Assembly (NCBI GenBank): GCA_018826905.1
Contig: JAHJYC010000003.1
Coordinates: 36,963 to 100,962 of the forward strand
Direction of reading: 5' to 3'
Origin: Patescibacteria group bacterium
GTDB taxonomy: Bacteria > Patescibacteriota > Minisyncoccia > Phycocordibacterales > Phycocordibacteraceae
Length of the DNA stretch: 64,000 nucleotides
Below the pieces are notes generated by a model. That model was not told where the DNA came from, made no database searches, and saw only the letters and a program-made list of their open reading frames with translations. The translations under genes were made by a program, and so were the position numbers. Each line of letters starts with the position of its first letter. The stretch's first letter is position 1. This document shows, piece after piece, positions 11,014-57,075 of the stretch.

Positions 11014-11032
11014 GCATGCTACGATTATGTAC

Positions 11033-12244
11033 ATGAAATTTCGTGTCACCGTTAAGACCGCAGAGGGGAGCGAGGAGAAGCGAGTCGTTGAAGCAGCGTC
11101 TCGCTTTGGTGTGTACTCTGAAATAGAAAAAGAAGGAGCAACAGTGCTCTCTGTTGAAGACGGTGCGGGGACAAAGATGCCGAAGTGGAGTGAGATAACT
11201 ATCGGAACAGGAGTGAAGATGGATGAGCGGATTACGTTTACCAAAAACTTGGCAGCAATGATCTCTGCTGGACTCACACTCTCGCGTGCACTCTCTGTTA
11301 TTGAACGCCAATCAACAAACAAGGCACTGAAGAAAATTGTTATAGACCTTGAGGAGCGAGTGAAGAAGGGAGATGCATTCCATGAAGCACTGGCCGGGCA
11401 CTCAAAGGTCTTCTCTGAACTCTTTATTGCGATGACTAAGGCGGGGGAAGAGTCTGGAACGCTTGCGGAGTCGCTTACGGTTGTGGCTAGTCAGATGGAT
11501 AAGGCCAATTCGCTTCAGAAGAAAGTGAAGGGTGCGATGATTTACCCGTCTATCATTCTGTCTGCCGTGGTGGTGATTGGTATTCTTATGCTTATTTATG
11601 TAGTGCCAACACTTTCAAATACATTTAAGGAACTTGGAGTGGAGTTACCAGCTGCCACGAAAGCAATTGTGAATACCTCAGACTTTATGGCAAACAATGT
11701 TGCCTTGGTGTTCGGACTCCTTATTGGCTTCTTTGGAGGGCTCTATTTCTTCCTTAAATCCAAGGTGGGGGGAAAGACACTTCTGTTCGTGTCTTTACGT
11801 CTTCCTATAATTGGGGAGCTTGTAAGAGAAACTATGAGTGCGCGTGGTGCTCGTGCACTCTCATCCCTCCTTTCTTCAGGGGTAGAAATGTTATCTGCAC
11901 TTAAAATCACAAGTGAGGTAGTGGGAGATAATGTGTTTGGAAAAGTGGTTGATGAAGCATCTGAGCGAGTACGAAAGGGAGAAGCACTTTCCGCTGCGTT
12001 CACCGATCATCCAAAGCTGTATCCTATTTTTGTTGCAGACATGATTGCTGTTGGAGAAGAGACAGGAAAGGTTGCAGACATGTTGGGACAAGTTGCGCAG
12101 TACTACGAGACTGATGTAGAAGATCGTACGAAAGACCTCTCAACAATTATTGAGCCAGTGCTCATGCTTGTTATCGGAACGGTTGTAGGTATCTTTGCGA
12201 TGTCTATGATTTCTCCGATCTACTCTCTCTCGGACAAGATTTAA
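11033..12244 (+). CDS. pilC: type IV pilus assembly platform protein PilC (GspF family)
   Basis: T2SSF-like domains with three TM segments; ATG start chosen at MKFRV... (the ORF track begins at an upstream TTG). Confidence 0.85.
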   Translation: MKFRVTVKTAEGSEEKRVVEAASRFGVYSEIEKEGATVLSVEDGAGTKMPKWSEITIGTGVKMDERITFTKNLAAMISAGLTLSRALSVIERQSTNKALKKIVIDLEERVKKGDAFHEALAGHSKVFSELFIAMTKAGEESGTLAESLTVVASQMDKANSLQKKVKGAMIYPSIILSAVVVIGILMLIYVVPTLSNTFKELGVELPAATKAIVNTSDFMANNVALVFGLLIGFFGGLYFFLKSKVGGKTLLFVSLRLPIIGELVRETMSARGARALSSLLSSGVEMLSALKITSEVVGDNVFGKVVDEASERVRKGEALSAAFTDHPKLYPIFVADMIAVGEETGKVADMLGQVAQYYETDVEDRTKDLSTIIEPVLMLVIGTVVGIFAMSMISPIYSLSDKI

Positions 12245-15768: not shown

Positions 15769-15791
15769 CAGGCACGTGCTAGGATTCATGT

Positions 15792-16529
15792 ATGCTTATC
15801 ATCGGAAATTGGAAGGCCTACATTGAATCTACAACGAAGGCAAAGGCTCTCTTTGCTTCTGCAAAACGACTTTCTGCAAAGGGAGTACATGAGGTAGTAG
15901 TTGCACCAGCATATCCCTATATAGGTATGGGGGCAGGAATTAAAGGACTTATTCTTGGTGCGCAGGATGTATCGGAAACGACCGGGGGCGCACAAACAGG
16001 CGAAGTTGCGGCTGGGCAGCTGGCTGATCTGGGAGTGTCGTATGTTATTGCAGGACATTCGGAGCGTAGAGCGCGTGGAGAGACTGACGAAGTTGTTACT
16101 GAAAAAGTCCGGCACATATTCGCGCACGGCATGGTCCCTGTACTTTGCGTTGGAGAGCGAGAGCGAGATTCAGATGCGCAGTATTTGAAGGAAGTACGCC
16201 AGCAGATAAGTGTTGTTATGGAGGCGTTGTCTCAAAAGGAGCGTTTACAGGTAGTTCTTGCATATGAGCCGGTCTGGGCAATTGGAAAAACCGGGGCTGA
16301 CGCAATCACTGCAGGAGACCTGGCTGAGATGGTGTTGTATATCAGAAAGATTCTCGGGGACTACATTCCAGGGAGAGCAACTACAAAAGTGAAGATTTTG
16401 TACGGCGGGTCTGTTGATGCAGAAAATATTCGTATGCTCGCGAGTGGGACGGGAGTGGAAGGATTTTTAGTAGGACGAGCCAGTGCAGACGTGGCCGCTT
16501 TTTCTGGATTGGTTAAGGCGCTTTCCTAG
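15792..16529 (+). CDS. tpiA: triosephosphate isomerase
   Basis: IIGNWKAY..., AYEPVWAIGTG, ...ILYGGSV signature motifs. Confidence 0.9.
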   Translation: MLIIGNWKAYIESTTKAKALFASAKRLSAKGVHEVVVAPAYPYIGMGAGIKGLILGAQDVSETTGGAQTGEVAAGQLADLGVSYVIAGHSERRARGETDEVVTEKVRHIFAHGMVPVLCVGERERDSDAQYLKEVRQQISVVMEALSQKERLQVVLAYEPVWAIGKTGADAITAGDLAEMVLYIRKILGDYIPGRATTKVKILYGGSVDAENIRMLASGTGVEGFLVGRASADVAAFSGLVKALS

Positions 16530-18828: not shown

Positions 18829-20577
18829 TTGGTACAATGCGCTCACATGTTCCCACTCTCCAAAGAACTAGACGAAGGCATACGCAAGGAACTCAGTGCG
18901 TACGATGATTTCACGGCGTCACTGCTTGCCCGCAGAGGACTTATAACAAAAGAAGCAGCAGAAGCGTTTCTCAGTCCTTCCTATGATGAGCATATCCACG
19001 ACCCTATGCTCATGAAGGATATGCCGAAGGCTGCAGCAAGACTGGCGGATGCAATAGCAAAGAAAGAAAAGATTGCAGTTTGGAGTGATTACGATTGCGA
19101 CGGTATTCCGGGAGGAGTGTTGCTCCATGACTTTCTTAAAAAGGCAGGGGCAAACTTTGTGAATTACATTCCTCACAGACATAACGAGGGGTACGGGGTG
19201 AATATCCCTGGGCTAGAATCGCTCGCTCGTGATGGCGTTACTCTTGTGGTGACTGTTGACTCGGGAATCGTAGACAATATCCCTGTAGCGCACGCACGTA
19301 CGTTAGGTATGGATGTCATCGTGACAGATCACCACCTTCCTCAAGAAGGTTTGCCTGAAGCTTATGCAGTATTGAATCCGAATGCACACCCTGATGAAAC
19401 GTATCCGTACAAGAGTTTGTGTGGGGCAGGGGTAGCGTGGAAACTCGTGTGCGCCACGCTTGCCATTGGATTCCCTGGAAGAGAAGAAATTCCAGAGGGA
19501 TGGGAGAAGTGGCTTCTAGACATGGCAGGTCTTTCAACAATTGCAGATATGGTTCCCCTTACAGGAGAGAACAGGGTTATCGCTTCTTACGGACTCTTGG
19601 TTATGCGAAAATCCCCGCGTATTGGATTACAGAAACTGTGTAAGATAGCGAGAGTACAGCAATCAAAAATAACCGAGGATGATGTTGGGTTTATGATTGG
19701 TCCGCGCATCAATGCAGCGTCACGCATGGGAGACCCCCGAGATGCATTTCTTTTGCTCTCAACAACGGATGAGTCTGAAGCAGATCTTCTTGCAAAGAAA
19801 CTGGAGTCTTTGAATCGCTCACGTAGAGCAACTGCTGGAGCTATTACTCGTGCAGTGCATGAGCGGTTGGAAGAACGAAAAGTTCTCGGCACGCTTCCTG
19901 CAGTTATTGCGCTTGGTGACCCGGACTGGAGACCGGGACTCCTTGGTCTTGTTGCGAATGGCATTGCAGAGGAATATGGGAGACCAACCTTCCTCTGGGG
20001 AAGAGAGGGAAACGATACTATAAAAGGATCATGTAGGAGCGGTCCGGGAAAAGTACATTTGCTTTCGCTTATGACAGAAGCAAAAGACGCTTTCATTGAA
20101 TTTGGAGGACATGCGGCGTCTGGGGGATTTTCAGTCGCAGCAGAATCAGTGTTCACACTTGAGGAGCAGTTGTCTGCGGCGCTTGCCTCGCTCCCTGAAA
20201 AAGAAATTGAAGCAGAAGACGCAGACAAACATATTGCTCCAGAAGATGCTACGCATAAACTATTGAAATCTTTAGAGCGGTTTGCGCCTTTCGGCATGGG
20301 TAACCCAAAACCAACTTTTGCACTGCATGATGTTCGTGTTGAATCAGTGTCTTGGTTTGGAAAGGCAGAGGAGCATTTACGTTTACATATTGGAAGAGGG
20401 CACGAAGAGTTCCCGGATACCCCACTTGAGGCAATTACATTTTATGCGAGAAGGGAATTTGGAGAGAAATGCGATACGTTAACCGCAGGGGCAAGCGTGC
20501 ATCTTTTAGCGCATCTTGAGAAAGACCAGTTTAAGCGAGGGCAACCGGTACGGCTTCGCATTATTTCACTGCGCTAG
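18829..20577 (+). CDS. recJ: single-stranded-DNA-specific exonuclease RecJ
   Basis: DHH motifs (WSDYDCDGI, VIVTDHHLPQ), DHHA1 region, C-terminal OB-like region; 582 aa. Confidence 0.85.
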   Translation: MVQCAHMFPLSKELDEGIRKELSAYDDFTASLLARRGLITKEAAEAFLSPSYDEHIHDPMLMKDMPKAAARLADAIAKKEKIAVWSDYDCDGIPGGVLLHDFLKKAGANFVNYIPHRHNEGYGVNIPGLESLARDGVTLVVTVDSGIVDNIPVAHARTLGMDVIVTDHHLPQEGLPEAYAVLNPNAHPDETYPYKSLCGAGVAWKLVCATLAIGFPGREEIPEGWEKWLLDMAGLSTIADMVPLTGENRVIASYGLLVMRKSPRIGLQKLCKIARVQQSKITEDDVGFMIGPRINAASRMGDPRDAFLLLSTTDESEADLLAKKLESLNRSRRATAGAITRAVHERLEERKVLGTLPAVIALGDPDWRPGLLGLVANGIAEEYGRPTFLWGREGNDTIKGSCRSGPGKVHLLSLMTEAKDAFIEFGGHAASGGFSVAAESVFTLEEQLSAALASLPEKEIEAEDADKHIAPEDATHKLLKSLERFAPFGMGNPKPTFALHDVRVESVSWFGKAEEHLRLHIGRGHEEFPDTPLEAITFYARREFGEKCDTLTAGASVHLLAHLEKDQFKRGQPVRLRIISLR

Positions 20578-20615
20578 TCGCTGTTTCCTTTATCGCTATT
20601 GCTATACTGACTTGC

Positions 20616-21032
20616 ATGCAATTTACTCTTTACGCAGACGGGGGCTCCAGAGGAAATCCAGGACCTGCCGGCGCCGGCGCAATTGTAAGAGATGAGACAG
20701 GAGAGACTGTTGTTGAAGTCTCTGAGTTTTTAGGACATGCAACGAACAATATTGCTGAGTACACTGCAGTACTTCGTGCTCTTGAAGTACTTTCTGAAAA
20801 ACTTGGACCAGAGGCCGTAAAGGCAACAGTCCATGTTCGCTTGGACAGCATGCTCGTTGTGCGTCAGATGATGAAGCAATGGAAGTTAAAAAACGAAGGG
20901 CTAAAGCCGCTTGCTGCACGAGTAGAGGAGCTTATGCAGAATTTTAATTCTGTCTCTTTTGAGCATGTATACAGAGAAGACAACACTGACGCAGACAGGC
21001 TCGCAAATAGAGCGATGGATCGGGGGAGGTAA
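20616..21032 (+). CDS. rnhA: ribonuclease HI
   Basis: LYADGGSRGNPGPAGAGAIV...NNIAEYTAVLRALE...TDADRLAN: DEDD catalytic residues of RNase H1. Confidence 0.85.
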   Translation: MQFTLYADGGSRGNPGPAGAGAIVRDETGETVVEVSEFLGHATNNIAEYTAVLRALEVLSEKLGPEAVKATVHVRLDSMLVVRQMMKQWKLKNEGLKPLAARVEELMQNFNSVSFEHVYREDNTDADRLANRAMDRGR

Positions 21033-30041: not shown

Positions 30042-31135
30042 AAAATATCGTTTTTAATTTCTTCAATAGAGAATTTAGAATCTACCGACGGGTAAGGGAT
30101 CCCTGCAAAAGTCTTAAGAACAGCTTCTACAATTATTTTTGCACCAAGCGGAGGTACCGCCATGCCTATTTGCTTTCTTACACTCTCCTTTGGGCCTTTA
30201 AAAATAAAATTGTCAGGGAAGCTCTGTATTCGGGCCCTTTCGCGGTTTGTAAGTGCACGTGGTTCTATCCAGTGATACACATGTGTGCCACCACCTCCGC
30301 TTCCTGTGATTGTGTAAGATGGCTTATTGGGATCAAGACGCTTATAAATTTGGCTCATCTTAGCTCCTTTGACATTAAGTCGAAGATGTTTAGGGAGACC
30401 TTCATACCACGCGTTTTCGCCGGCAGGAATATGCAAAAGACGTTCAATTACGTGAGTAGCTTGCTTAGTGTGTTCATTATTGGACACTTCTTTGGGTATT
30501 GGCGGCTTCTCAAGGGCCATCTTTGCTGTGACAGGTTTATTCTTTGTGGTTGGAGCAGGAATTCTGAACTCAAGTCCTTGGTCTTTTCTTATCCCAATAA
30601 TTACAACGCGGTGCCTTTGTTGAGGAACGCCATATTCCTCGAATTTATATAGATGAGGGTATAGATTGTATCCCTTACCTGCAGCCTGAAGATCGGTAAG
30701 AATTTTCTTAAAGGCCTCACCTCCGTTTGCGCTCTGTAGACCGCCAACATTTTCAGCAAAAAACCATAGAGGGTTATGTTCATTTATTGCTTTTACACCA
30801 TATGTATAAAGGGGACCATATTTGCCGTTAAATCCTTTCTGCTTGCCAACTAAACTGAAATCGTTGCATGGAAAACCAAAAGCCAAGGCATCAAATTTAG
30901 GGATTTTTTTGAAATCAACTTTTTCAACAGGGCCACAGAAGACTCTTTTCTGGTTACCATGATGTATGTTTAACGCGTATGTTTGGCAGGTGTCCTCATC
31001 AATATCATTGGCCCAAACTGGAACTACCTTATACACAGCATTGCCTTTTTTCACCTCTGCCATGGAGGCGCCAAGACTTAGACCGCCTGGGCCACAGAAC
31101 AGCTCGGCAAAACGGAATTCTACCTTCTTTTTCAT
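30038..31135 (-). CDS. DNA (cytosine-5)-methyltransferase
   Basis: Motif I FCGPGG, motif IV PCNDFS, motif VI ENV, C-terminal motifs; start taken at MKKKVEF. Confidence 0.9.
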   Translation of the reverse strand: MKKKVEFRFAELFCGPGGLSLGASMAEVKKGNAVYKVVPVWANDIDEDTCQTYALNIHHGNQKRVFCGPVEKVDFKKIPKFDALAFGFPCNDFSLVGKQKGFNGKYGPLYTYGVKAINEHNPLWFFAENVGGLQSANGGEAFKKILTDLQAAGKGYNLYPHLYKFEEYGVPQQRHRVVIIGIRKDQGLEFRIPAPTTKNKPVTAKMALEKPPIPKEVSNNEHTKQATHVIERLLHIPAGENAWYEGLPKHLRLNVKGAKMSQIYKRLDPNKPSYTITGSGGGGTHVYHWIEPRALTNRERARIQSFPDNFIFKGPKESVRKQIGMAVPPLGAKIIVEAVLKTFAGIPYPSVDSKFSIEEIKNDIF

Positions 31136-31185
31136 AATAAGAATCCTAGCACTATAGTAATAATTTTGCAGCAACGAAATTTAAG

Positions 31186-31213
31186 TACCCTAACTTATAA
31201 GCTAGGGTACTGC
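31186..31213. promoter_or_regulatory. 14-bp near-perfect inverted repeat upstream of the methyltransferase gene (possible operator)
   Basis: agtaccctaacttataagctagggtact, about 50 nt upstream of the M-gene ATG. Confidence 0.3.
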
Positions 31214-31351
31214 CTCAGTTGCCCGGCACTAGCGATTGATAGGATTCACTCCATGATAGGCGCTATACCCCATGTGTAGGAAATGGTTGCATTTCCAGAG
31301 CAGCTCTTATATAGTGCTTTTAGCTCCCACGGGGGAGTTTTCATTTGCTGC

Positions 31352-35385: not shown

Positions 35386-35415
35386 CAAAACCGCCTCAGT
35401 AAGGGGCGGTTTTGT
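35386..35415 (+). terminator. rho-independent terminator after fusA
   Basis: aaaaccgcctcagtaaggggcggttttg. Confidence 0.65.
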
Positions 35416-36058
35416 GCTACGGTGTACCTATATGACCAAACGAACTAAAGCTTTCCTTGCTGTTTTTGTAGTAGTTGCCCTTGGTGCGTACGGATATTTG
35501 TATTGGTGGGCAAATACTCCAGAGCACGGAGTCTTTGATTCTATCCCTATCGTGCGTGAGGTGTCGGACTCTCTTTCAAAGGGAGTAGTGCGTACTCCAG
35601 TTGTTGAGGAAGAGGCAGTAGTAGAAGAAGAGGAGAGTGTTCCTGTTGATACACAGACCTATAAGACATATGAGAACACTACGCAGAAGTTCAGCTTGGA
35701 CTATCCGGACACTTGGATTCCAACCGTTACGAACATAGACGGTGTTATGACGCTCTGTATCACTGATACTGAAGCAACGGGCCCTTGCATGCTTACCGTT
35801 GAGAGCGAAGCAGAGGGTGTGAATGTGAGCGAGGAGAAGACTTATATTGCGCTTAAGGCTGAGTACCGCGCTGGCAAGCTTACTGAGCTTGAGCGCGCTG
35901 TTGGCGGAGAGATGGGACGATTGCTCCGTATTTCAGGAGAACCAACAGTGAGTCGTGTGGTGGTATTCAGTCACGAAGGACGTGTCTACACTGTTTCAGC
36001 CCTTGAAGGACAGGAAACTGTATTTGATCGGGCAACTGAGTCCTTTAGATTCCAGTAA
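35414..36058 (+). CDS. hypothetical membrane-anchored protein (likely start ATG 35432, MTKRTKAFLAVF...)
   Basis: Single N-terminal TM, acidic linker EEEAVVEEEE, beta-rich C-domain; unusual position between fusA and tuf. Confidence 0.5.
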   Translation: MLRCTYMTKRTKAFLAVFVVVALGAYGYLYWWANTPEHGVFDSIPIVREVSDSLSKGVVRTPVVEEEAVVEEEESVPVDTQTYKTYENTTQKFSLDYPDTWIPTVTNIDGVMTLCITDTEATGPCMLTVESEAEGVNVSEEKTYIALKAEYRAGKLTELERAVGGEMGRLLRISGEPTVSRVVVFSHEGRVYTVSALEGQETVFDRATESFRFQ

Positions 36059-38013: not shown

Positions 38014-39120
38014 ATGAATCCATTCCAAGCACAGTTCCCGTTGAGCCCTAGGAAGTTCTGGAAAAAATTTCTTCCGGTCATAATTCCCAGCATTCTTTTC
38101 AGTGCGTTTGTGGGCGTATTTTTCGCATTCTTTTTGCCATTCTTTCATGGAAATCTAGAGCTCTCTGCTGAAAGCATGATTAGGACGAGTATACTTCTTA
38201 CCGTCGGGCTCTCTATTTTAGTGTTGGCCCTCTATGCTTGGTACTTTAAGGTGTACATTCGCACTTATTCGTATGAAGGAGGAGATAACTTCATTCGAAT
38301 AAAGAAGGGCGTATTCGCACCACGTGAAATCCATGTGCAGTACCAAAAGATTCAGGACGTCTATGTGGATCAGGATATTCTAGATCGTATTTTGGGTATT
38401 TATGACGTACATATCTCAAGTGCGACTATGTCTTCAGGAATGGAAGCGCACATTGATGGTGTGAATAAAGATGTAGCGGACGGACTACGGGAGTTCTTTC
38501 TCAATAAGGTCCAACGTGCAACCGTGGGCTATGTAGACCCTGCAGCGCCAGCTATGGCGGAGCAGAATCAGGCCGCTGCCCCAGTTCAGCTCTCTGAAGA
38601 GATATCAAGCGCGGCGTATCCAATCCGTCCTATGTGGATGGTGGTAAGCGTGCTCGGTACAATATTTATGAGTTTGATCATAGGTCTCTTTACGGCAGGC
38701 TACGCAGTAGCGAAGACGTCGGATGATGGCGATGGCCTTCCGTTCCTCGGCACATTTCTCGTTTTTACCGCAGGATACTTCGTGTTCCACTTCATCGGGA
38801 TACTTCTTTGGAAGAGTAACTATAGTTTCCAGCTTACTCCTGACTATGTGCTCTACCGCACCGGTATACTTAGTAAGTCAGAGCGCCATCTTCCATACCG
38901 CACAATCCAGGACGTAAGTATCTCCCAGTCGTTCTTTGATCGCATATTTGGTCTCTATAATGTCGTAATTGAGAACGCAGCGCAGGTCGCCATGACTAAA
39001 GGCCGCCTTTCTAATGCGAACATAAAGCTTGTTGGTCTTGCTAAGGATCAAGCGACCCACATAACTGAGACACTGAAACCGATCATACTCTCTAAGACGA
39101 GTATCCAGACCGGCATATAA
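38014..39120 (+). CDS. membrane protein with two bacterial PH (YdbS/YdbT-like, DUF304) repeats
   Basis: Two repeats each with TM hairpin + DRILGIYDVHISSATMSSG / DRIFGLYNVVIENAAQ motifs. Confidence 0.55.
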   Translation: MNPFQAQFPLSPRKFWKKFLPVIIPSILFSAFVGVFFAFFLPFFHGNLELSAESMIRTSILLTVGLSILVLALYAWYFKVYIRTYSYEGGDNFIRIKKGVFAPREIHVQYQKIQDVYVDQDILDRILGIYDVHISSATMSSGMEAHIDGVNKDVADGLREFFLNKVQRATVGYVDPAAPAMAEQNQAAAPVQLSEEISSAAYPIRPMWMVVSVLGTIFMSLIIGLFTAGYAVAKTSDDGDGLPFLGTFLVFTAGYFVFHFIGILLWKSNYSFQLTPDYVLYRTGILSKSERHLPYRTIQDVSISQSFFDRIFGLYNVVIENAAQVAMTKGRLSNANIKLVGLAKDQATHITETLKPIILSKTSIQTGI

Positions 39121-39129
39121 TTAGACTGT

Positions 39130-39507
39130 ATGCAGGACTCCCTCAATTCTCTCTGGAACACCGTGGGTGAATGGGGCACATCATCTGAAGGGTTTGCAAT
39201 CATAATTGGCTGTACTGTTCTTCTCGTTGCGTATGCGCATTTTAAGAACGCACGTACATGGAAGGCCCAGAACTCCGGAGTGCGCGCGCGCTTCTCAAAG
39301 AGAAACGCCTTCAAGTTACTCATGTCAGGAATAGTCTTATTTGTATCAAGTATTGGGGGGTTGCTGTTCGTCCAACGTCTACATTCAGTTCTCAACTCAA
39401 ATACTCCAGTTCCGCTATCCGGACATGTGTTGCTTTTAGGAGGGCTCGGCTTTGTCGGTTTAATGTTGGTCGGTTTCAGCCTCTGGCTTTTGGCGCGATC
39501 TGAATAG
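39130..39507 (+). CDS. small 3-TM membrane protein (hypothetical)
   Basis: 125 aa with hydrophobic helices. Confidence 0.4.
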   Translation: MQDSLNSLWNTVGEWGTSSEGFAIIIGCTVLLVAYAHFKNARTWKAQNSGVRARFSKRNAFKLLMSGIVLFVSSIGGLLFVQRLHSVLNSNTPVPLSGHVLLLGGLGFVGLMLVGFSLWLLARSE

Positions 39508-39570
39508 TGCCTGCCCAAAGGGTAGTTTTATTATTTCTTTAGAGGTTAGTTCAGTCGTATACTTACTTGT

Positions 39571-40251
39571 ATGAAAACGATTTTTATCTCCGGGGGGAAC
39601 CAAGGTCTCGGAAGAGCTCTGGCAGAGAAATTCGCAGGAGAGCACAATGTAGTTATTCTTGCGCGTAACGAAGACAAGGGCAGACAAGCAGCTGAAGAGG
39701 TGGGGTGTGACTTAGTCGTTGCTGATGTTTCAGATTACACTCAAATTCAGGCTGCAGTTGATTCTGTTATTCAGAAATACGGCGCAATAGACTGCTTGAT
39801 AAACAATGCTGGTCTCTGGATACAAGGGGCTCTGGAAGACAATGACCCAGAACAGGTAAGCGCTGCTATGAATGTGAATGCAACAGCGACCATTCTTTTG
39901 ACCCGTGCGTGTCTGCCGTACATGAAAAAGGCGCAGAAGGGAAGAATAATTAACGTAATTTCTCAATCAGGGTTTTATGGAAAAGGGGAGCGAAGTGTGT
40001 ACACCGCTTCAAAATGGGCGATTGCTGGCTTTACTAAGTCTCTTCAAATGGAACTAACGGGTACCGCAGTCACGGTTTGTGGGTTTTATCCAGGCTCTAT
40101 GAAGACGGAGTTTTTTGCTAACGCTGGAGTGGAGAAGGACAGTTCCAAGTTCATGGAGTTATCGGAAGTTGTCCGGGCAGTTGAGTTTATAGTAGATACA
40201 CCAGACCATCTTTCTATCCCTGAATTAGGAATCAAGCCCGCCTATTACTAA
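39571..40251 (+). CDS. SDR-family oxidoreductase
   Basis: TGGNQGLG Rossmann motif, NNAG, YTASKWA (YxxxK). Confidence 0.8.
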   Translation: MKTIFISGGNQGLGRALAEKFAGEHNVVILARNEDKGRQAAEEVGCDLVVADVSDYTQIQAAVDSVIQKYGAIDCLINNAGLWIQGALEDNDPEQVSAAMNVNATATILLTRACLPYMKKAQKGRIINVISQSGFYGKGERSVYTASKWAIAGFTKSLQMELTGTAVTVCGFYPGSMKTEFFANAGVEKDSSKFMELSEVVRAVEFIVDTPDHLSIPELGIKPAYY

Positions 40252-42139: not shown

Positions 42140-42982
42140 ATGAAGTCTTTTAAACCAACATCAGCAAGTCGCCGAAGCATGACCGTTGTCACGTACCGTG
42201 GCGTGCTTTCAGGTGACAAGCCACACAAGCCACTTCTTTCGTACAAGAAGCGTCAGGGAGGTCGCAACAATGCAGGACGCATTACAACTCGTCATCAGGG
42301 AGGCGGACATAAGCGCATGCTTCGCGATGTTGACTTTAAGTACAACAAGCACGACATTCCTGCTCGTATTGAGACTATTGAGTACGATCCATATCGCACC
42401 GCATTCATTGCACGTACCGTCTTTGCTGATGGAGAGCGTCGCTATGTAACGGTCCCTAAGGACATGAAGGTGGGCGACACATTCATCGTATCTGAGAAAG
42501 CACCTATCAAGACTGGAAACCGTCTTCCGCTTGGAAAGATTCCTTCAGGAACATTTATCTACAACGTAGAGCTTCGTCCAGGAGCTGGTGCGCGCATCGC
42601 TCGCTCTGCTGGAAACTACGCTGAGATTGTTGCGCATGATGCTGGCTACGCACAGATCAAGATGCCTTCAAGTGAGGTACGTAAGGTTATTGAGTCTGCA
42701 TGGGCTTCAGTTGGAGCAGTAGGCAACGAAGAGCAGCGTCTTCAGAATTACGGAAAGGCAGGAAAGAGTCGCTGGAAAGGTATTCGCCCAACAGTGCGTG
42801 GTACTGCGATGAACCCAGTTGATCACCCACACGGAGGTGGTGAAGGAAAGCAGGGACGTGGACTTCGTCGTGCCAAGAGCATGTGGGGCAAGCCAACAGG
42901 TAAGGGACAGAAGACCCGTACTCCAAAGAAGTACTCAAACAAGTTTATTGTTTCTCGCCGAAAGGTTGGAAAGAAGCGATAA
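42140..42982 (+). CDS. rplB: 50S ribosomal protein L2
   Basis: 280 aa; ...GRNNAGRITTRHQGGGHKR..., ...HPHGGGEGK... Confidence 0.95.
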   Translation: MKSFKPTSASRRSMTVVTYRGVLSGDKPHKPLLSYKKRQGGRNNAGRITTRHQGGGHKRMLRDVDFKYNKHDIPARIETIEYDPYRTAFIARTVFADGERRYVTVPKDMKVGDTFIVSEKAPIKTGNRLPLGKIPSGTFIYNVELRPGAGARIARSAGNYAEIVAHDAGYAQIKMPSSEVRKVIESAWASVGAVGNEEQRLQNYGKAGKSRWKGIRPTVRGTAMNPVDHPHGGGEGKQGRGLRRAKSMWGKPTGKGQKTRTPKKYSNKFIVSRRKVGKKR

Positions 42983-42992
42983 GACACAAAGA

Positions 42993-43025
42993 AAAGCCCC
43001 GCCAGAGTGCGGGGCTTTTCTTTTA
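42993..43025 (+). terminator. rho-independent terminator after rplB
   Basis: aaagccccgccagagtgcggggcttttctttt. Confidence 0.7.
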
Positions 43026-43073
43026 TGTATAGAGAGAGTAGGGTGATGCAGAAGACACGCCAGGAGGTAAGTG

Positions 43074-43307
43074 ATGCACATTTTTCGTTCGCTCCGCCTG
43101 AGAAAGTGGCGAGAACAACAACGGTTGAGGCGAGAGCTCAGGAAGACAGTAAGCTATCTGAAACATCTCGCCTCTATGTATGAGGAAACTAAAGGAAACG
43201 ACGATCAATCAAAGATCCTCCTTTGGGTAATTAAGGCCTGGTACGCACGAAAATGGGAATTGATGAGAAAGATCAAGCCCCCTTTGCGTTCCAGGTACAA
43301 GACTTAA
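43074..43307 (+). CDS. hypothetical small basic protein (77 aa) with perfect SD
   Basis: caggaggtaagtgATG; R/K-rich (pI high); followed by hairpin gccagctatagtacgctggttcttttt. Confidence 0.35.
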   Translation: MHIFRSLRLRKWREQQRLRRELRKTVSYLKHLASMYEETKGNDDQSKILLWVIKAWYARKWELMRKIKPPLRSRYKT

Positions 43308-43332
43308 GCCAGCTATAGTACGCTGGTTCTTT

Positions 43333-44172
43333 TTATGGAACGTACTTCTCGTTCAGAACTTCTGAAAGCTGTGCGAGCGGAATAGATACACTTTGTGGCC
43401 CAAGCGCATAGGGACCAACTTGGTAGGGAGGGAACAGGAAGACTAGAGTGTTTCCTTCAACAACAAAGGTCTGAAAGTTAGCGGTCTCTGGGGCTGTGCC
43501 TTGCTGCATGTAGGAGACATCTGCATCTTCTCCAAGTTTCTTTTGAAGCTCAAAGCGTGCAATCTCAGAGATGCGCTTTAGATAGTCTGTGCGGGGCTTG
43601 AATAAAGAGGCGAGTGAAAGCTCTGCGCCAGTTTCTGCATCAAAAACGAAGGTCCTATAGAAAGAGTTCGGGTGTGCACCAAACGTGTCTGTATAGAGCG
43701 TATAGGCGTATGAGACGGTATGTGGAGCGAGTACTTCGTTGTATTCAATAGCGAGCGCCTGCTTCCTCCCGTCCTCGTATCCCATCATTTGAATATCCTC
43801 TTTTGTGAGGCTTGCGAAGTTACCTTCACGCTTGAACTGTTGAATGGTGTCTTCAACAAAGCTCTTCATAGTGTCTATAGCCTCTACGTCTGCAGTGGTT
43901 CCTGCAGAGACTGAGAGGGGTGTCTCAGACGGGTACGCAGCCTCAATATCGTAATACTGCGCATGTTCACGAATAGTCTGTGGTTCTGTAGGAGGAACAG
44001 GTACCGTCTCTTCTACGAGAGGACTATAAGGCTCTGGTGCCTGATGGGTGGCCATGTACCAAAGAGAAAGTCCAAGGACTACCGCTATGAGAGCACCAGC
44101 ACCGAGAAGTTCCAGCTTCTGAACACGAGTGAGAGAGTGAATGTTCCACATATAGGAAGAAGTATAGCCCAT
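43333..44172 (-). CDS. membrane-anchored DUF3298/DUF4163 (RsiV/PdaC-like) domain protein
   Basis: N-terminal TM; ...YAYTLYTDTFGAHPNSFYRTFVFD... characteristic of DUF3298. Confidence 0.55.
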   Translation of the reverse strand: MGYTSSYMWNIHSLTRVQKLELLGAGALIAVVLGLSLWYMATHQAPEPYSPLVEETVPVPPTEPQTIREHAQYYDIEAAYPSETPLSVSAGTTADVEAIDTMKSFVEDTIQQFKREGNFASLTKEDIQMMGYEDGRKQALAIEYNEVLAPHTVSYAYTLYTDTFGAHPNSFYRTFVFDAETGAELSLASLFKPRTDYLKRISEIARFELQKKLGEDADVSYMQQGTAPETANFQTFVVEGNTLVFLFPPYQVGPYALGPQSVSIPLAQLSEVLNEKYVP

Positions 44173-44181
44173 AAATGAAAA

Positions 44182-44207
44182 GGGCCGGATGCGTGTGCGT
44201 CCGGCCC
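44182..44207 (-). terminator. terminator hairpin immediately upstream of (abutting) the DUF3298 gene start, terminating the small acidic peptide gene
   Basis: gggccggatgcgtgtgcgtccggccc with U-run on the minus transcript. Confidence 0.55.
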
Positions 44208-44225
44208 CTGGAAAGATCTGGTGCT

Positions 44226-44372
44226 TTACCAGAAGATACTGTCAGGATCGTAGCCGGGGTCAGAGTTCCAACTCATCATTGAATCAATGGCCCCATCATC
44301 AATCTCGGGGTCTTCCCCAAGATCCTGACTGTCAGAATCGGTGGCTGGAAAGCCACCCAGCGTAGTTGTCAT
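44226..44372 (-). CDS. high-GC small acidic peptide (48 aa)
   Basis: Not in the ORF track (<60 aa); found by translating the minus strand: gagggaggaatagcATG then MTTTLGGFPATDSDSQDLGEDPEIDDGAIDSMMSWNSDPGYDPDSIFW*. Confidence 0.4.
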   Translation of the reverse strand: MTTTLGGFPATDSDSQDLGEDPEIDDGAIDSMMSWNSDPGYDPDSIFW

Positions 44373-44413
44373 GCTATTCCTCCCTCTCAACTACTTTTTC
44401 ACCCTATCATGAA

Positions 44414-44440
44414 AAAAGCTATGCGCGAGCATAGCTTGTG
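44414..44440 (-). terminator. terminator between the two small acidic peptide genes
   Basis: agctatgcgcgagcatagct perfect hairpin + U-run on the minus transcript. Confidence 0.55.
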
Positions 44441-44449
44441 TTGGCTATT

Positions 44450-44620
44450 CTAGCCAAAAGAGCCCACCAGCCGGCGCACCATAGCATCAGCGTCCTGAAA
44501 GAGGCCTCCATAGATGGCGAGCGCGCCTTCACCGAATTCTTCAGTGATTTCAGCGATTGCAGACGTTACATCTGCGTGCGGGACGGGCTCCTCGGCCTGT
44601 CCACGGGTATCTGTAGTCAT
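44450..44620 (-). CDS. high-GC small acidic protein (56 aa)
   Basis: gagggaggaagtATG SD; MTTDTRGQAEEPVPHADVTSAIAEITEEFGEGALAIYGGLFQDADAMVRRLVGSFG. Confidence 0.45.
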   Translation of the reverse strand: MTTDTRGQAEEPVPHADVTSAIAEITEEFGEGALAIYGGLFQDADAMVRRLVGSFG

Positions 44621-44737
44621 ACTTCCTCCCTCGTTGAGCACCAAAGTACCCTATCATGGAGCCCGGTAGTTTGACACTTCTCTCTGTTTCATATAGATTC
44701 TATCTATCCCGCCTGGCGGGCTTTCCATTGTCTATCT

Positions 44738-45085
44738 ATGTCCCGATCCCTTAAAAAAGGCCCATACATTGACCTGAACCTTATGAAGAAAGTTCAGGAC
44801 AAGAAGCCGTCTGCGACCGGTACTATTAAGACATGGGCACGCAACAGCCAGATTGCTCCTGAGTTCGTTGGATTCACTTTTGGAGTCCATAACGGCAAGC
44901 AACACGTAGACGTACTCGTTTCTGAGGAAATGGTCGGACACCGTCTCGGCGAGTTCTCTCCAACGAAGAAATTCCTTCGTCACGGAGGAAAGATGCAGAA
45001 GCAGCTTGAGGAGAAGCGAAAGGTTGCTGAAATTGCAGCAGCAAAGGCCGCTAAAGCAGCCCCATCACCTGCTAAGAAGAAATAA
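44738..45085 (+). CDS. rpsS: 30S ribosomal protein S19 with K/A-rich C-terminal extension
   Basis: [12 protein letters not shown]... S19 core. Confidence 0.9.
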
Positions 45086-48377: not shown

Positions 48378-48402
48378 ACATATAGAAACAGGGTTGTAGT
48401 AT
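48375..48402 (+). promoter_or_regulatory. sigma70-like promoter TTGACA-N16-TAGTAT driving the high-GC lipoprotein cassette
   Basis: ttgacatatagaaacagggttgtagtat. Confidence 0.4.
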
Positions 48403-48452
48403 CAAAATACTAAGTTTGGTAGTTGTATCAGGCTTTTAAGAAGGAGGATGAA

Positions 48453-48944
48453 GTGAGAAAGATGTTCTTTGCGGGGGCTCTTGTCCTTGCACTTTCCGCC
48501 TGCGACAGGAACACGGACAACAATCTGCGGTACGAAGTTTCCGTGGACTACCGTGAGCCTGTGGGCGCCGTGGTCAGGGAGCTCGGCCTTAACACGGAGG
48601 AAGTGCCTGTGTACGAGGTCATGAACCGCAGCAGGCATGGAGTCGGCGAAGAGCTTCGCTGGATGCGCGTGGTTCGGCATCGGGAGCTGAAGGACACCTA
48701 CAGCCCCAAAAACGGGTTTCACCCGGCCGATACGCGCGAAATGCTGGCGTTCTACGCCACGCACCCCCAGGCAGTGCCTTTCAAAGGGCTCTGCGCTCCG
48801 GGCGAGCAACTGCCGCTTGGGGAAGGGGTGATCGGCGTGCCGGTTATCACGCGCGCAGGCAATCTCGGCATTTCCGCCCATGGCTGCAAGAAGCCGGGCC
48901 GTCGCGTGCTCGTGGTGCGAGATTTCGGCCGCACGCAGCCCTGA
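48453..48944 (+). CDS. high-GC lipoprotein (~163 aa), unknown family
   Basis: aaggagg SD 5 nt before GTG 48453 (alternative ATG 48462); lipobox LVLALSAC; GC3 nearly all G/C; own terminator. Confidence 0.55.
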   Translation: MRKMFFAGALVLALSACDRNTDNNLRYEVSVDYREPVGAVVRELGLNTEEVPVYEVMNRSRHGVGEELRWMRVVRHRELKDTYSPKNGFHPADTREMLAFYATHPQAVPFKGLCAPGEQLPLGEGVIGVPVITRAGNLGISAHGCKKPGRRVLVVRDFGRTQP

Positions 48945-48950
48945 ATATAC

Positions 48951-48990
48951 GGTCCCCATGTCTTCATTGGCGCGGGGACCATTTTCTTTG
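48951..48990 (+). terminator. terminator of the lipoprotein cassette
   Basis: ggtccccatgtcttcattggcgcggggacc + attttcttt. Confidence 0.55.
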
Positions 48991-52967: not shown

Positions 52968-53001
52968 ACGCGCGTAGCGGTGCGCGTGCTAGAGTCTCTA
53001 T

Positions 53002-53589
53002 ATGAATACACGAGGTATCTTAGTTCCCGTCGTAGCTCCCACTGGAAGCGGGAAGGATACGCTCATTACGTACGCGAAGTCTCTGTATCCTGAAATTGTG
53101 TTGTCCATATCGTGCACGACTCGTGCTCCTCGCGAAGGGGAGGTTGATGGTGTTGATTACTACTTCCTTACGCGAGAAGCGTTTGAGGCGCGTATCGCAG
53201 AGGGCGGGTTACTTGAGTGGGCAGAGTATGGAGGCAACTACTATGGCACGCCAAAGGCAGAGATAGAACAGGCTCTTTCAGAAGGGAAGCTTATTATGGG
53301 AGATATTGAAGTGCAGGGAGTGCGCCTCATTAGCGAACTCCTCCCAAAGGAAGAATTTAGCACCATATACATTGATGCAGGGTCTTGGGAGGTATTGTCT
53401 GCGCGCGCTCTCTCTCGCGCTCCTATGAGCGAGCAGGAGCTTCTGAAGAGAAAGTCACGATACGAGGATGAGGCATCATACAAAGCTGAAGCAACCTATG
53501 TTGTTCATAATCCAGACGGGCACCTTGAGGTGGCAAAAGAGGAAATGAAGCAGGTTGTGGAGGAGCTTCTTGCACGAATCGCTCGCTAA
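53002..53589 (+). CDS. gmk: guanylate kinase
   Basis: P-loop APTGSGKDT; TTRAPREGEVDGVDYYF guanylate-kinase signature. Confidence 0.8.
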   Translation: MNTRGILVPVVAPTGSGKDTLITYAKSLYPEIVLSISCTTRAPREGEVDGVDYYFLTREAFEARIAEGGLLEWAEYGGNYYGTPKAEIEQALSEGKLIMGDIEVQGVRLISELLPKEEFSTIYIDAGSWEVLSARALSRAPMSEQELLKRKSRYEDEASYKAEATYVVHNPDGHLEVAKEEMKQVVEELLARIAR

Positions 53590-53612
53590 TACTTATTTGG
53601 TACTATTATCTT

Positions 53613-54194
53613 ATGGAACAACTTTCGTACAGCAACGTACTTCTTATGGGCCGTCCTGGGTCTGGGAAGGGGACACAAGCAAAGCGTCTTGCAGAGAAGT
53701 TTGGATGGGAACACTTTTCTACGGGAGATCGGTTTAAGATACTTCGCGACGAGGACAGCGAGATCGGAAGAAGCGTACGTGAAGCGTATGACGCAGGGAA
53801 ACTGCTTCCTGATTGGTTTGCAACGTATCTTTTTGAAAGCGTTGTTTTGTCTATGAGTCCTGAGAAGGGACTTGTATCTGAAGGGTACCCTCGTTCCCTA
53901 GGACAGGCAGAGATATTTGATGAGATTCTTTCATGGCTAACCCGCCCATATAAGGTCTTGGATCTTGCTGTTTCTGATGAGCTTGTAACAGAGCGCATGC
54001 TTCTTCGCGCAGAGACGGAACACCGTCCTGACAGCGCAACAAAGGAGCAGATTATGGCTCGCCTTGCGACCTACGAAGAGCACACTGCTCCTGTGCTTGA
54101 TTTCTTTAGAGAGAGAGGGCTCCTTGTTTCAATAGACGGAGCTCTTTCTCCTGACCAGGTTACCGAAGCAATTCTAAGAGAGCTCTCTGCATGA
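53613..54194 (+). CDS. adk: adenylate kinase
   Basis: GRPGSGKGTQ P-loop, NMP-binding and LID regions. Confidence 0.9.
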   Translation: MEQLSYSNVLLMGRPGSGKGTQAKRLAEKFGWEHFSTGDRFKILRDEDSEIGRSVREAYDAGKLLPDWFATYLFESVVLSMSPEKGLVSEGYPRSLGQAEIFDEILSWLTRPYKVLDLAVSDELVTERMLLRAETEHRPDSATKEQIMARLATYEEHTAPVLDFFRERGLLVSIDGALSPDQVTEAILRELSA

Positions 54195-56505: not shown

Positions 56506-56715
56506 TATTTCCCAAAGGTATACTTTTCCCGGAGCCGTCCCTAAAACGCAACTTGCTTAATTTTCGGGAGTCTTATATTCACGTGTCGGGGTGCTCCTTT
56601 AAGGACTAACCGGTGCGATGCGGGCACCCACGTGGCATCAAAAAGTTGCCACATGGGGACGGTTCCGACGAAAGCTCGCCATTATGGCGGGCTTTCGTCG
56701 TGCTACCATACCTCC

Positions 56716-57075
56716 ATGCGTCTCCCGTGGCTCATTTCTGCACTCATACTTGCAGCAGTGCTTGCGCTCCTACAGCATGTAGCACTCGCTGACTATTTGT
56801 ACTGGAGGTATCCTTGGTTTGATACACTCATGCACTTTTTGGGAGGACTTACGGTTGCTTGTTTTGCTGTGGGATTGCTACGGAAACACCGTGCACAATT
56901 ATTTCTAGTTGGAATGGTCGCTATCGCTGTTGGATGGGAAGTGTTTGAATTTGCTATAGGAACTCAAAGAGAGGCTAATTTTGTATTTGATACATCACTT
57001 GATTTGCTTATGGACACATTGGGAATGGTAACGGTGTACTTAGTCGCTAGATATACGCTATGGCGCTCCGCGTAA
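56716..57075 (+). CDS. VanZ-like small membrane protein (ORF extends upstream to 56632, but that part is probably a structured leader)
   Basis: 4 TM; VGWEVFEF...DTSLDLLMDTLG typical VanZ acidic residues. Confidence 0.45.
   Translation: MRLPWLISALILAAVLALLQHVALADYLYWRYPWFDTLMHFLGGLTVACFAVGLLRKHRAQLFLVGMVAIAVGWEVFEFAIGTQREANFVFDTSLDLLMDTLGMVTVYLVARYTLWRSA

Follow-up and report, generated by a model that had tools for sequence, protein, structure and literature searches.

What kind of genes, if genes at all, are the two short open reading frames (ORFs) that lie inside the S10/spc ribosomal gene cluster of a Patescibacteria group bacterium? Few gene orders are as well conserved among bacteria as that of the S10 ribosomal operon. 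In the stretch analysed here (the window, 64 kb of contig JAHJYC010000003.1 from assembly GCA_018826905.1, within which all positions are numbered), both ORFs, of 48 and 56 amino acids (aa), are found on the minus strand between a DUF3298 gene and rpsS. An earlier reading of the sequence by a model (the original prediction) had placed them between rplB and rpsS with the DUF3298 gene adjoining, and the flanks are indeed found there (Table 1); it took the pair for a duplicated expression module encoding novel acidic peptides. We consider it likely that they are instead two separate single-gene units, that is, real small-protein genes restricted to a narrow lineage, each with an ordinary promoter and terminator, in a variable islet beside a DUF3298 gene that splits the operon.

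When the minus strand is translated again, both ORFs are present as first proposed: each starts with MTT, the shorter one ends in SIFW, and each is preceded by the Shine-Dalgarno (SD) sequence GAGGGAGGA. Most of what can be said about them comes from a sister species, represented by GCA_018826405.1 and two further metagenome-assembled genomes (MAGs; loci L001-L004), in which the cassette recurs at the same site. The proposed character of the peptides, acidic and high in GC, holds only in part: GC is high only in the 56-aa ORF (58%, versus about 49-51% in the neighbours; 51% in the 48-aa ORF), and acidity is conserved only in the 48-aa protein, whose net charge is about -12.4 here and in the sister, whereas for the 56-aa protein it changes from -7.4 here to -2.3 in the orthologue. 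Both proteins lack Cys, and no signal peptide or hydrophobic segment is present in either.

The 48-aa protein shares 47% identity with its sister orthologue, also of 48 aa, including the conserved motifs LGGFPA, IDSxMxW and GYDP, and the 56-aa protein shares 59-63% with a 60-aa orthologue, whereas the neighbouring ribosomal proteins are 94-99% identical between the two species. Start codon, SD, stop codon and terminator of both genes are all kept in the sister, the SD sequences reading GAGGGAGG for the 56-aa gene and GAGGAGGAGGA for the 48-aa gene. Substitutions at codon positions 1, 2 and 3 number 17, 14 and 32 in the 56-aa gene and 16, 12 and 30 in the 48-aa gene, a third-position excess that is significant for both genes combined (chi-square p = 1.2e-4). 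The only indels are in frame: one of 12 nt in the 56-aa gene and two of 3 nt each in the 48-aa gene. For the 56-aa gene the ratio of nonsynonymous to synonymous substitution rates (dN/dS) is about 0.21 by the Nei-Gojobori method; for the 48-aa gene synonymous sites are saturated, and the corresponding ratio of uncorrected proportions (pN/pS) is 0.41. In the same species pair, dN/dS is 0.01-0.06 for ribosomal proteins and 0.12 for the DUF3298 protein. Because of the codon-position bias, the in-frame indels and the conserved start, SD, stop and terminator, both ORFs are judged, on the basis of one species pair, to be real, fast-evolving protein genes under purifying selection. The original claim that they are genuine, expressed small ORFs thus stands as a prediction of two independently expressed genes. 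Note that a 78-aa antisense ORF (44438-44674, plus strand) is also open in both species; since most substitutions fall at its own first codon position, it is ruled out as a coding frame.

The same data bear on the idea that these are non-functional or very young ORFs in recently acquired DNA, or that their transcripts act as small RNAs. This idea is compatible with the orphan status of the ORFs, with their fast evolution relative to the neighbouring ribosomal proteins, and with structure predictions that are disordered or of low confidence. However, it does not account for a third-position bias, in-frame indels and a conserved SD, start and stop despite saturated synonymous divergence, and an Rfam scan of positions 42900-44800 at E <= 1 returned only sub-threshold matches, far below the gathering scores and nearly all over the rplB terminator. 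We therefore regard it as improbable.

Each gene carries its own expression signals. Past both stop codons lies a GC-rich hairpin followed by a U-run, and the structure is conserved in the sister, as is characteristic of intrinsic terminators. A perfect hairpin had been proposed after each ORF; this is correct for terminator 1, behind the 56-aa gene, but the stem of terminator 2 contains one internal C/A mismatch. In the sister, the stem of terminator 1 is retained via a compensatory change and that of terminator 2 is altered in sequence with equal energy (-22.4 kcal/mol), and terminator stability is unchanged despite the differing stems.

On the upstream side, the box CATGATAGGGT that had been noticed before each gene is confirmed at its two positions, with its 3' end 28 nt (56-aa gene) or 29 nt (48-aa gene) from the A of the ATG. 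The TAnnnT hexamer recognized within it as -10-like belongs to a predicted extended -10 element, TGATAGGGT, which ends 27-28 nt before the ATG and would give a 5' untranslated region of about 21 nt that includes the SD. The two modules show no sequence likeness in the stretch from the -10 to the SD, and identity is confined to TGnTAGGGT, GGAGG and ATGAC. The likeness that suggested a duplicated module is therefore one of consensus elements, and the two genes are better described as two instances of the same ordinary type of promoter and SD.

The exact CATGATAGGGT occurs only twice in the 64 kb, and still only twice when one mismatch is allowed. Of the general motif TGnTAnnnT the window contains 72 sites. 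In a shuffle control, at least two matches with at most one mismatch were obtained in 14 of 100 shuffles, and the sister boxes are TATGCTAGGGT and CATGGTAGGGT (the latter being box 2), so that only TGnTAGGGT is conserved. For these two reasons the exact 11/11 identity of the two boxes carries little weight by itself. In addition, TGnTAGGGT is found 12-13 nt after GTCAAA at the position of box 1 in the sister (L003) and in two related loci (L013 and L014), and in the latter two the genes downstream are unrelated.

The distribution of the general motif is informative in another way. When its distance to the ATG is tabulated for ORFs of 100 aa or longer, a sharp peak of 10 sites appears at 6-8 nt; three sites lie at 1 nt, and nearly all other distances have none or one. 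Many genes that follow at 6-8 nt (examples in Table 1) lack an SD, and several TGnTAnnnT sites lie directly 3' of the preceding terminator, as box 2 does. Because of this peak immediately before the start codons, widespread leaderless mRNAs are predicted, and the genome appears to rely broadly on extended -10 promoters and leaderless transcripts. Such a reading would shift several annotated gene starts. A limited literature search found no paper on leaderless mRNAs in the candidate phyla radiation (CPR), on DUF3298 in Patescibacteria or on the S10 operon in Patescibacteria.

The box, then, is by its sequence a general extended -10 promoter element of the sigma-70 type, TGnTAnnnT, and not a dedicated operator: TGn directly adjoins TAnnnT, the distance to the gene is suitable, the element is conserved between orthologues, and it is reused at other genes. 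The conservation in the sister and the window-wide spacing peak both point this way. Extended -10 (TGn-TAnnnT) sigma-70 promoters and leaderless mRNAs have been described in Actinobacteria and Deinococcus. The window resembles these cases in its conserved TGnTAnnnT, often 6-8 nt before the start, and in promoters that follow terminators; it differs in that the two small genes are leadered and have an SD, in the G-rich hexamer TAGGGT, and in that the promoters here are predicted from sequence. As a separate observation, a near-perfect, operator-like palindrome, GTACCCTAACTTATAAGCTAGGGTAC, lies at 31180-31215 between divergent genes starting at 31135 (minus strand) and about 31283 (plus strand), and contains 2 of the 15 TAGGGT hexamers of the window.

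The adjacent DUF3298 gene fits the leaderless pattern. The original prediction had supposed that terminator 2, which abuts this gene, cuts it off from any promoter; in fact a conserved TATACT-N9-ATG arrangement, predicted to be a leaderless promoter, follows the terminator and leads into the gene. Related loci repeat this pattern before DUF3298 as TAYACT-N7-9-ATG, and in those that bear an insert TATACT-N7-9-ATG directly follows the terminator of the cargo. The start is most likely the ATG at 44151 rather than that at 44172, which gives the 272-aa form chosen by the Prokaryotic Genome Annotation Pipeline (PGAP). The product matches PF11738 (E = 5.5e-16; 59.7 bits versus a cut-off of 24.1 bits), has an N-terminal transmembrane segment, and in the PDB matches MPT64 (2hhi, 3.6e-10) and RsiV (5jen, 2.1e-5). 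It thus resembles the extracytoplasmic MPT64/RsiV proteins (DUF3298 plus PdaC-like) but, unlike RsiV, has no cytoplasmic anti-sigma domain. The family scan revealed no sequence link of the small proteins to anti-sigma or sigma modules.

A metagenome scan with the DUF3298 protein gave 17 loci (L012-L028) at 39-59% identity. In every locus that includes the flank in question, rpsS lies divergently upstream (15 loci) and rplB convergently downstream (12 loci), which indicates that the antisense DUF3298 gene interrupts the S10 operon at the rplB/rpsS junction throughout the clade. What varies is the space between the rpsS ATG and the start of DUF3298. In 11 loci this gap does not exceed about 125 nt and has TGnTAYACT 7-9 nt before the ATG; inserts of 690-870 nt are present only in the window, the sister, L013, L014 and L012/L027. 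Downstream of the TGnTAGGGT at the box 1 position there are unrelated ORFs of 169 aa in L013 and 198 aa in L014, and the 248-aa ORF found in both L012 and L027 is encoded on the opposite strand. These cargo ORFs show no likeness to the small proteins, to one another or to Pfam families. The possibility that the small proteins are fragments of the L013 or L014 cargo was discarded after hhalign and BLASTP found nothing.

The edge of the slot on the rpsS side is itself strongly conserved. About 95 nt upstream of rpsS are 100% identical between the window and the sister, whereas the flanking coding DNA differs by 20-35%. In 14 clade members the -35 (TTGAC) and -10 of rpsS are conserved, as is a hairpin near the 5' end (CCCGC-loop-GCGGG, then CUUUUCAUU); because the core of the stem does not vary among these 14 sequences, covariation is uninformative. 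The rpsS leader may be an mRNA-stabilising or autoregulatory element.

On these comparisons, the slot that separates DUF3298 from the rpsS promoter is a flank-conserved variable islet. It is like the known flank-conserved hypervariable islets in that the flanks are kept (the rpsS promoter with TGnTAGGGT on one side; terminator, TATACT and DUF3298 on the other) and the cargo is unrelated, and unlike typical ones in being very small, at 0-0.9 kb. The islet showed no mobility gene, no integrase and nothing resembling an attC site, and no integrase search was made across the whole window; by inspection, its hairpins are short GC stems with U-runs, not attC sites of 57-141 nt, and its genes carry their own promoters. 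In the arrangement that we propose, each unit would run from the extended -10 through a leader with a strong SD and a short ORF to an intrinsic terminator, and the two small genes would be cargo of an islet bounded by the divergent rpsS promoter with TGnTAGGGT and by the terminator, TATACT and leaderless DUF3298.

The location invites the thought of a role related to the ribosome, such as that of an acidic chaperone or assembly factor serving the neighbouring basic ribosomal proteins; the original prediction had named a chaperone-like role among its options. The genes do lie in the S10/spc cluster, back-to-back with the rpsS promoter, and the 48-aa protein is strongly acidic in both species. 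However, the acidity of the 56-aa protein is not conserved, and among related loci the slot is vacant in 11 and occupied by unrelated ORFs in four, although the ribosomal proteins are conserved there (S19 at 67-90%, L2 at 71-87%); a function for conserved ribosomal proteins would not be so lineage-restricted. A ribosomal role is accordingly quite improbable.

The restriction to a narrow lineage emerges from several kinds of search. Word-indexed searches of 5.8e9 proteins with both small proteins matched only the sister orthologues, and in a scan of one genome per GTDB species the cassette was found in the sister MAG only. A HMMER profile built from the 56-aa alignment and run against 1.84e9 representatives returned only its own cluster and two false hits, P0005 (7311 aa) and P0006 (838 aa), which are repetitive proteins with short repeat units that match 15-26 times. 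Neither small protein had a match in Pfam, PHROGs, NCBIfam, PADLOC or PDB sequences, and the family assignments that had been envisaged, including RiPP (ribosomally synthesized and post-translationally modified peptide) precursor families in Pfam and NCBIfam, came to nothing. Neither has a relative in the IMG/VR viral contigs, and a viral origin was rejected on this ground. In addition, blastn and tblastx detected no paralogous DNA elsewhere in the window. A Rhodococcus match of the 56-aa protein in the GTDB genome scan is a segment within a short-chain dehydrogenase (SDR) and is attributed to chance; neither the SDR encoded in the window nor Pfam adh_short is significantly similar to the protein.

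Within the reach of these searches, both proteins are restricted to one narrow Patescibacteria lineage, namely this species and one sister. The AGNOSTOS catalogue for Cand. Patescibacteria contains 45,788 species-level and 6,987 genus-level lineage-specific clusters of unknowns (PMC9132574), and because such genes are very abundant there, the small proteins can be regarded as ordinary CPR orphans. Like the catalogued unknowns (PMC9132574) they are restricted to a species or genus, small and without a family; unlike typical ones they have delineated expression signals, an orthologue pair under purifying selection, and a site inside the conserved S10 operon.

As for what the genes do, the products would probably be small proteins of the cytoplasm that work through binding to a partner, and the 48-aa protein would do so via its conserved aromatic and hydrophobic motifs within an acidic disordered chain. 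That they give rise to modified peptides is improbable. Two more specific proposals depend on the other side of DUF3298, which is also variable. The rplB-DUF3298 gap is 350 nt in the window and contains other inserts in L016 and L025. In the sister, it holds a gene for a 294-aa PF03171 2-oxoglutarate (2OG)-Fe(II) oxygenase on the strand opposite to the small genes; among solved structures the oxygenase resembles only a generic iron/ascorbate-family oxidoreductase and AdaV, both weakly. A 78-aa ORF in this gap of the window was considered as a remnant of the sister oxygenase and discarded, as the two show no similarity.

The gap in the window also contains a candidate third module, with a TAGGGT 29 nt before the ATG of a 77-aa ORF (isoelectric point 11, net charge +14.7). 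This ORF is called by gene callers on Logan contigs and not by PGAP, is overlapped by a 58-aa ORF in another frame, which leaves the gene call ambiguous, and is missing in the sister; it is a possible coding sequence at most.

The basic ORF could make the acidic proteins part of a toxin-antitoxin or inhibitor pair in which they neutralise a basic partner. The charges are opposite (-7.4 and -12.5 versus +14.7), and all three ORFs have a TAGGGT -10 about 27-29 nt before an SD-led ATG within 1.7 kb. However, the sister keeps both acidic genes and lacks the basic ORF, for which PGAP made no call, and promoter and terminator are separate for each gene, whereas toxin-antitoxin operons are bicistronic and autoregulated. 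In Pfam and PADLOC there is no match to a toxin-antitoxin or defence family and no toxin family adjacent, and Pfam, PADLOC and PDB sequences give no match to an antitoxin fold or family (ribbon-helix-helix, helix-turn-helix, AbrB, Phd). The earlier suggestion of an antitoxin or adaptor thus fits poorly with monocistronic genes that match no family, and we consider such a pair very improbable.

Least probable of all is the RiPP-type precursor that the original prediction also named, which would be tailored by an enzyme such as the sister oxygenase and matured to a bioactive peptide: the genes are indeed small and stand-alone with strong signals, and the sister does have an oxygenase between DUF3298 and rplB, but that enzyme is absent here, where both peptides are retained under purifying selection, it is encoded on the opposite strand with generic and weak structure matches, neither peptide has a Cys in either species, the conserved residues extend along the full length in no leader/core pattern, no precursor family in Pfam or NCBIfam matches, and the remaining genes within several kb are ribosomal, with no protease, exporter or RiPP recognition element protein nearby. 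That no modification enzyme is near had already been remarked, and none is found in the window, where the neighbours are ribosomal-protein genes and DUF3298.

Several points weigh against our preferred reading, in which two real, lineage-restricted genes are served by ordinary promoters and terminators. TAGGGT is found at all three candidate small genes of the island and at none of the approximately 10 listed leaderless promoters, and an ordinary promoter leaves this unexplained. The selection statistics come from a single pairwise comparison of about 50 codons per gene, with synonymous sites near saturation. The AlphaFold2 models have low confidence (pLDDT, the predicted local distance difference test, of 61 for the 56-aa protein, with two helices at residues 16-29 and 44-53, and 59 for the mostly coiled or disordered 48-aa protein), so that descriptions of helix and disorder are weak. 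Lastly, the exhaustive HMMER search covered the 56-aa family, and very remote relatives of the 48-aa protein may exist.

A bolder view, which we hold to be doubtful, is that the rplB/rpsS junction is a fixed "landing pad": a conserved promoter (TGnTAGGGT), back-to-back with the strong promoter of rpsS, and a conserved downstream terminator would frame a slot in which unrelated, lineage-specific genes are repeatedly captured or born and are immediately expressed. The two small proteins would be its present occupants in this lineage, and the TAGGGT class would mark the cargo, including the 77-aa ORF beyond DUF3298. Whichever way the genes arrived, what seems unusual about the locus is its context, namely a split S10 operon, an antisense gene predicted to be leaderless, flanking variable slots and a pervasive TGnTAnnnT/leaderless architecture. 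If confirmed by transcriptomics, this architecture would help to predict gene starts and to model operons in Patescibacteria, and the junction would be a tractable locus for studying the entry of new genes into an essential operon. The small genes themselves are mainly of value to small-protein annotation, as a clean case with all its limits defined. Some gene calls miss them; the 48-aa gene, for instance, was left uncalled on the sister contigs L001 and L002.

Table 1. Positions of the two small genes, their predicted expression signals, the flanking features and examples of extended -10 sites found 6-8 nt before start codons
Feature	Position	Strand	Remarks
56-aa ORF (MTTDTRGQ...)	44620..44450	-	NCBI hypothetical protein KJ819_01280
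Box 1, CATGATAGGGT	44658-44648	-	Promoter of 56-aa gene; extended -10 TGATAGGGT at 44656-44648; back-to-back with rpsS promoter
SD of 56-aa gene, GAGGGAGGA	44632-44624	-	Sister version GAGGGAGG
Intrinsic terminator 1 (56-aa gene)	44437-44416	-	9-bp perfect stem, 4-nt loop, U-run; -12.3 kcal/mol, z = -3.9
48-aa ORF (MTTTLGG...SIFW)	44372..44226	-	NCBI hypothetical protein KJ819_01275
Box 2, CATGATAGGGT	44411-44401	-	Promoter of 48-aa gene, extended -10; directly after terminator 1
SD of 48-aa gene, GAGGGAGGA	44386-44378	-	Sister version GAGGAGGAGGA
Intrinsic terminator 2 (48-aa gene)	44209-44180	-	U-run 44179-44173; -22.3 kcal/mol, z = -5.8
TATACT, -10 of DUF3298 gene	44166-44161	-	9 nt upstream of ATG 44151; leaderless mRNA predicted
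DUF3298 / MPT64-RsiV-like membrane-anchored protein gene	43333..44151	-	Antisense, at rplB/rpsS junction
rpsS promoter, TTGACA-17-TAGATT	44671-44699	+	Divergent from box 1
rpsS 5'-proximal hairpin	44708-44720	+	rpsS without SD
Conserved rpsS upstream region	44660-44737	+	Holds rpsS promoter and hairpin
rpsS	44738-45085	+	Divergent flank
rplB	42140-42982	+	Convergent flank
Bidirectional terminator, 15 bp	42988-43023		Directly 3' of rplB; -26.4 kcal/mol
Candidate third module	43039..43328	+	TAGGGT 43039-43044; SD AGGAGG; 77-aa ORF 43074-43307; terminator 43307-43328
TGnTAnnnT to start, gene starting 11033	11017-11035		
TGnTAnnnT to start, gene starting 15792	15777-15794		
TGnTAnnnT to start, gene starting 18847	18830-18849		
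TGnTAnnnT to start, gene starting 20616	20600-20618		
TGnTAnnnT to start, gene starting 31135	31151-31133	-	
TGnTAnnnT to start, gene starting 35432	35415-35434		
TGnTAnnnT to start, gene starting 53002	52987-53004		
TGnTAnnnT to start, gene starting 53613	53598-53615		
TGnTAnnnT to start, gene starting 56716	56701-56718		

The bidirectional terminator directly behind rplB closes the upstream half of the S10 operon. Further non-ribosomal inserts are present in the str/S10/spc cluster of the window: a 208-aa unknown between fusA and tuf (35414-36058), a bPH_2 gene, a 125-aa ORF and an SDR gene at the rpsJ/rplC junction (38014-40251), and a 173/185-aa unknown at the rplE/rpsN junction (48402-48959). 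At the rpsJ/rplC junction the sister has other cargo, consisting of a 166-aa ORF and an antisense 56-aa ORF (L001, 10228-11069).

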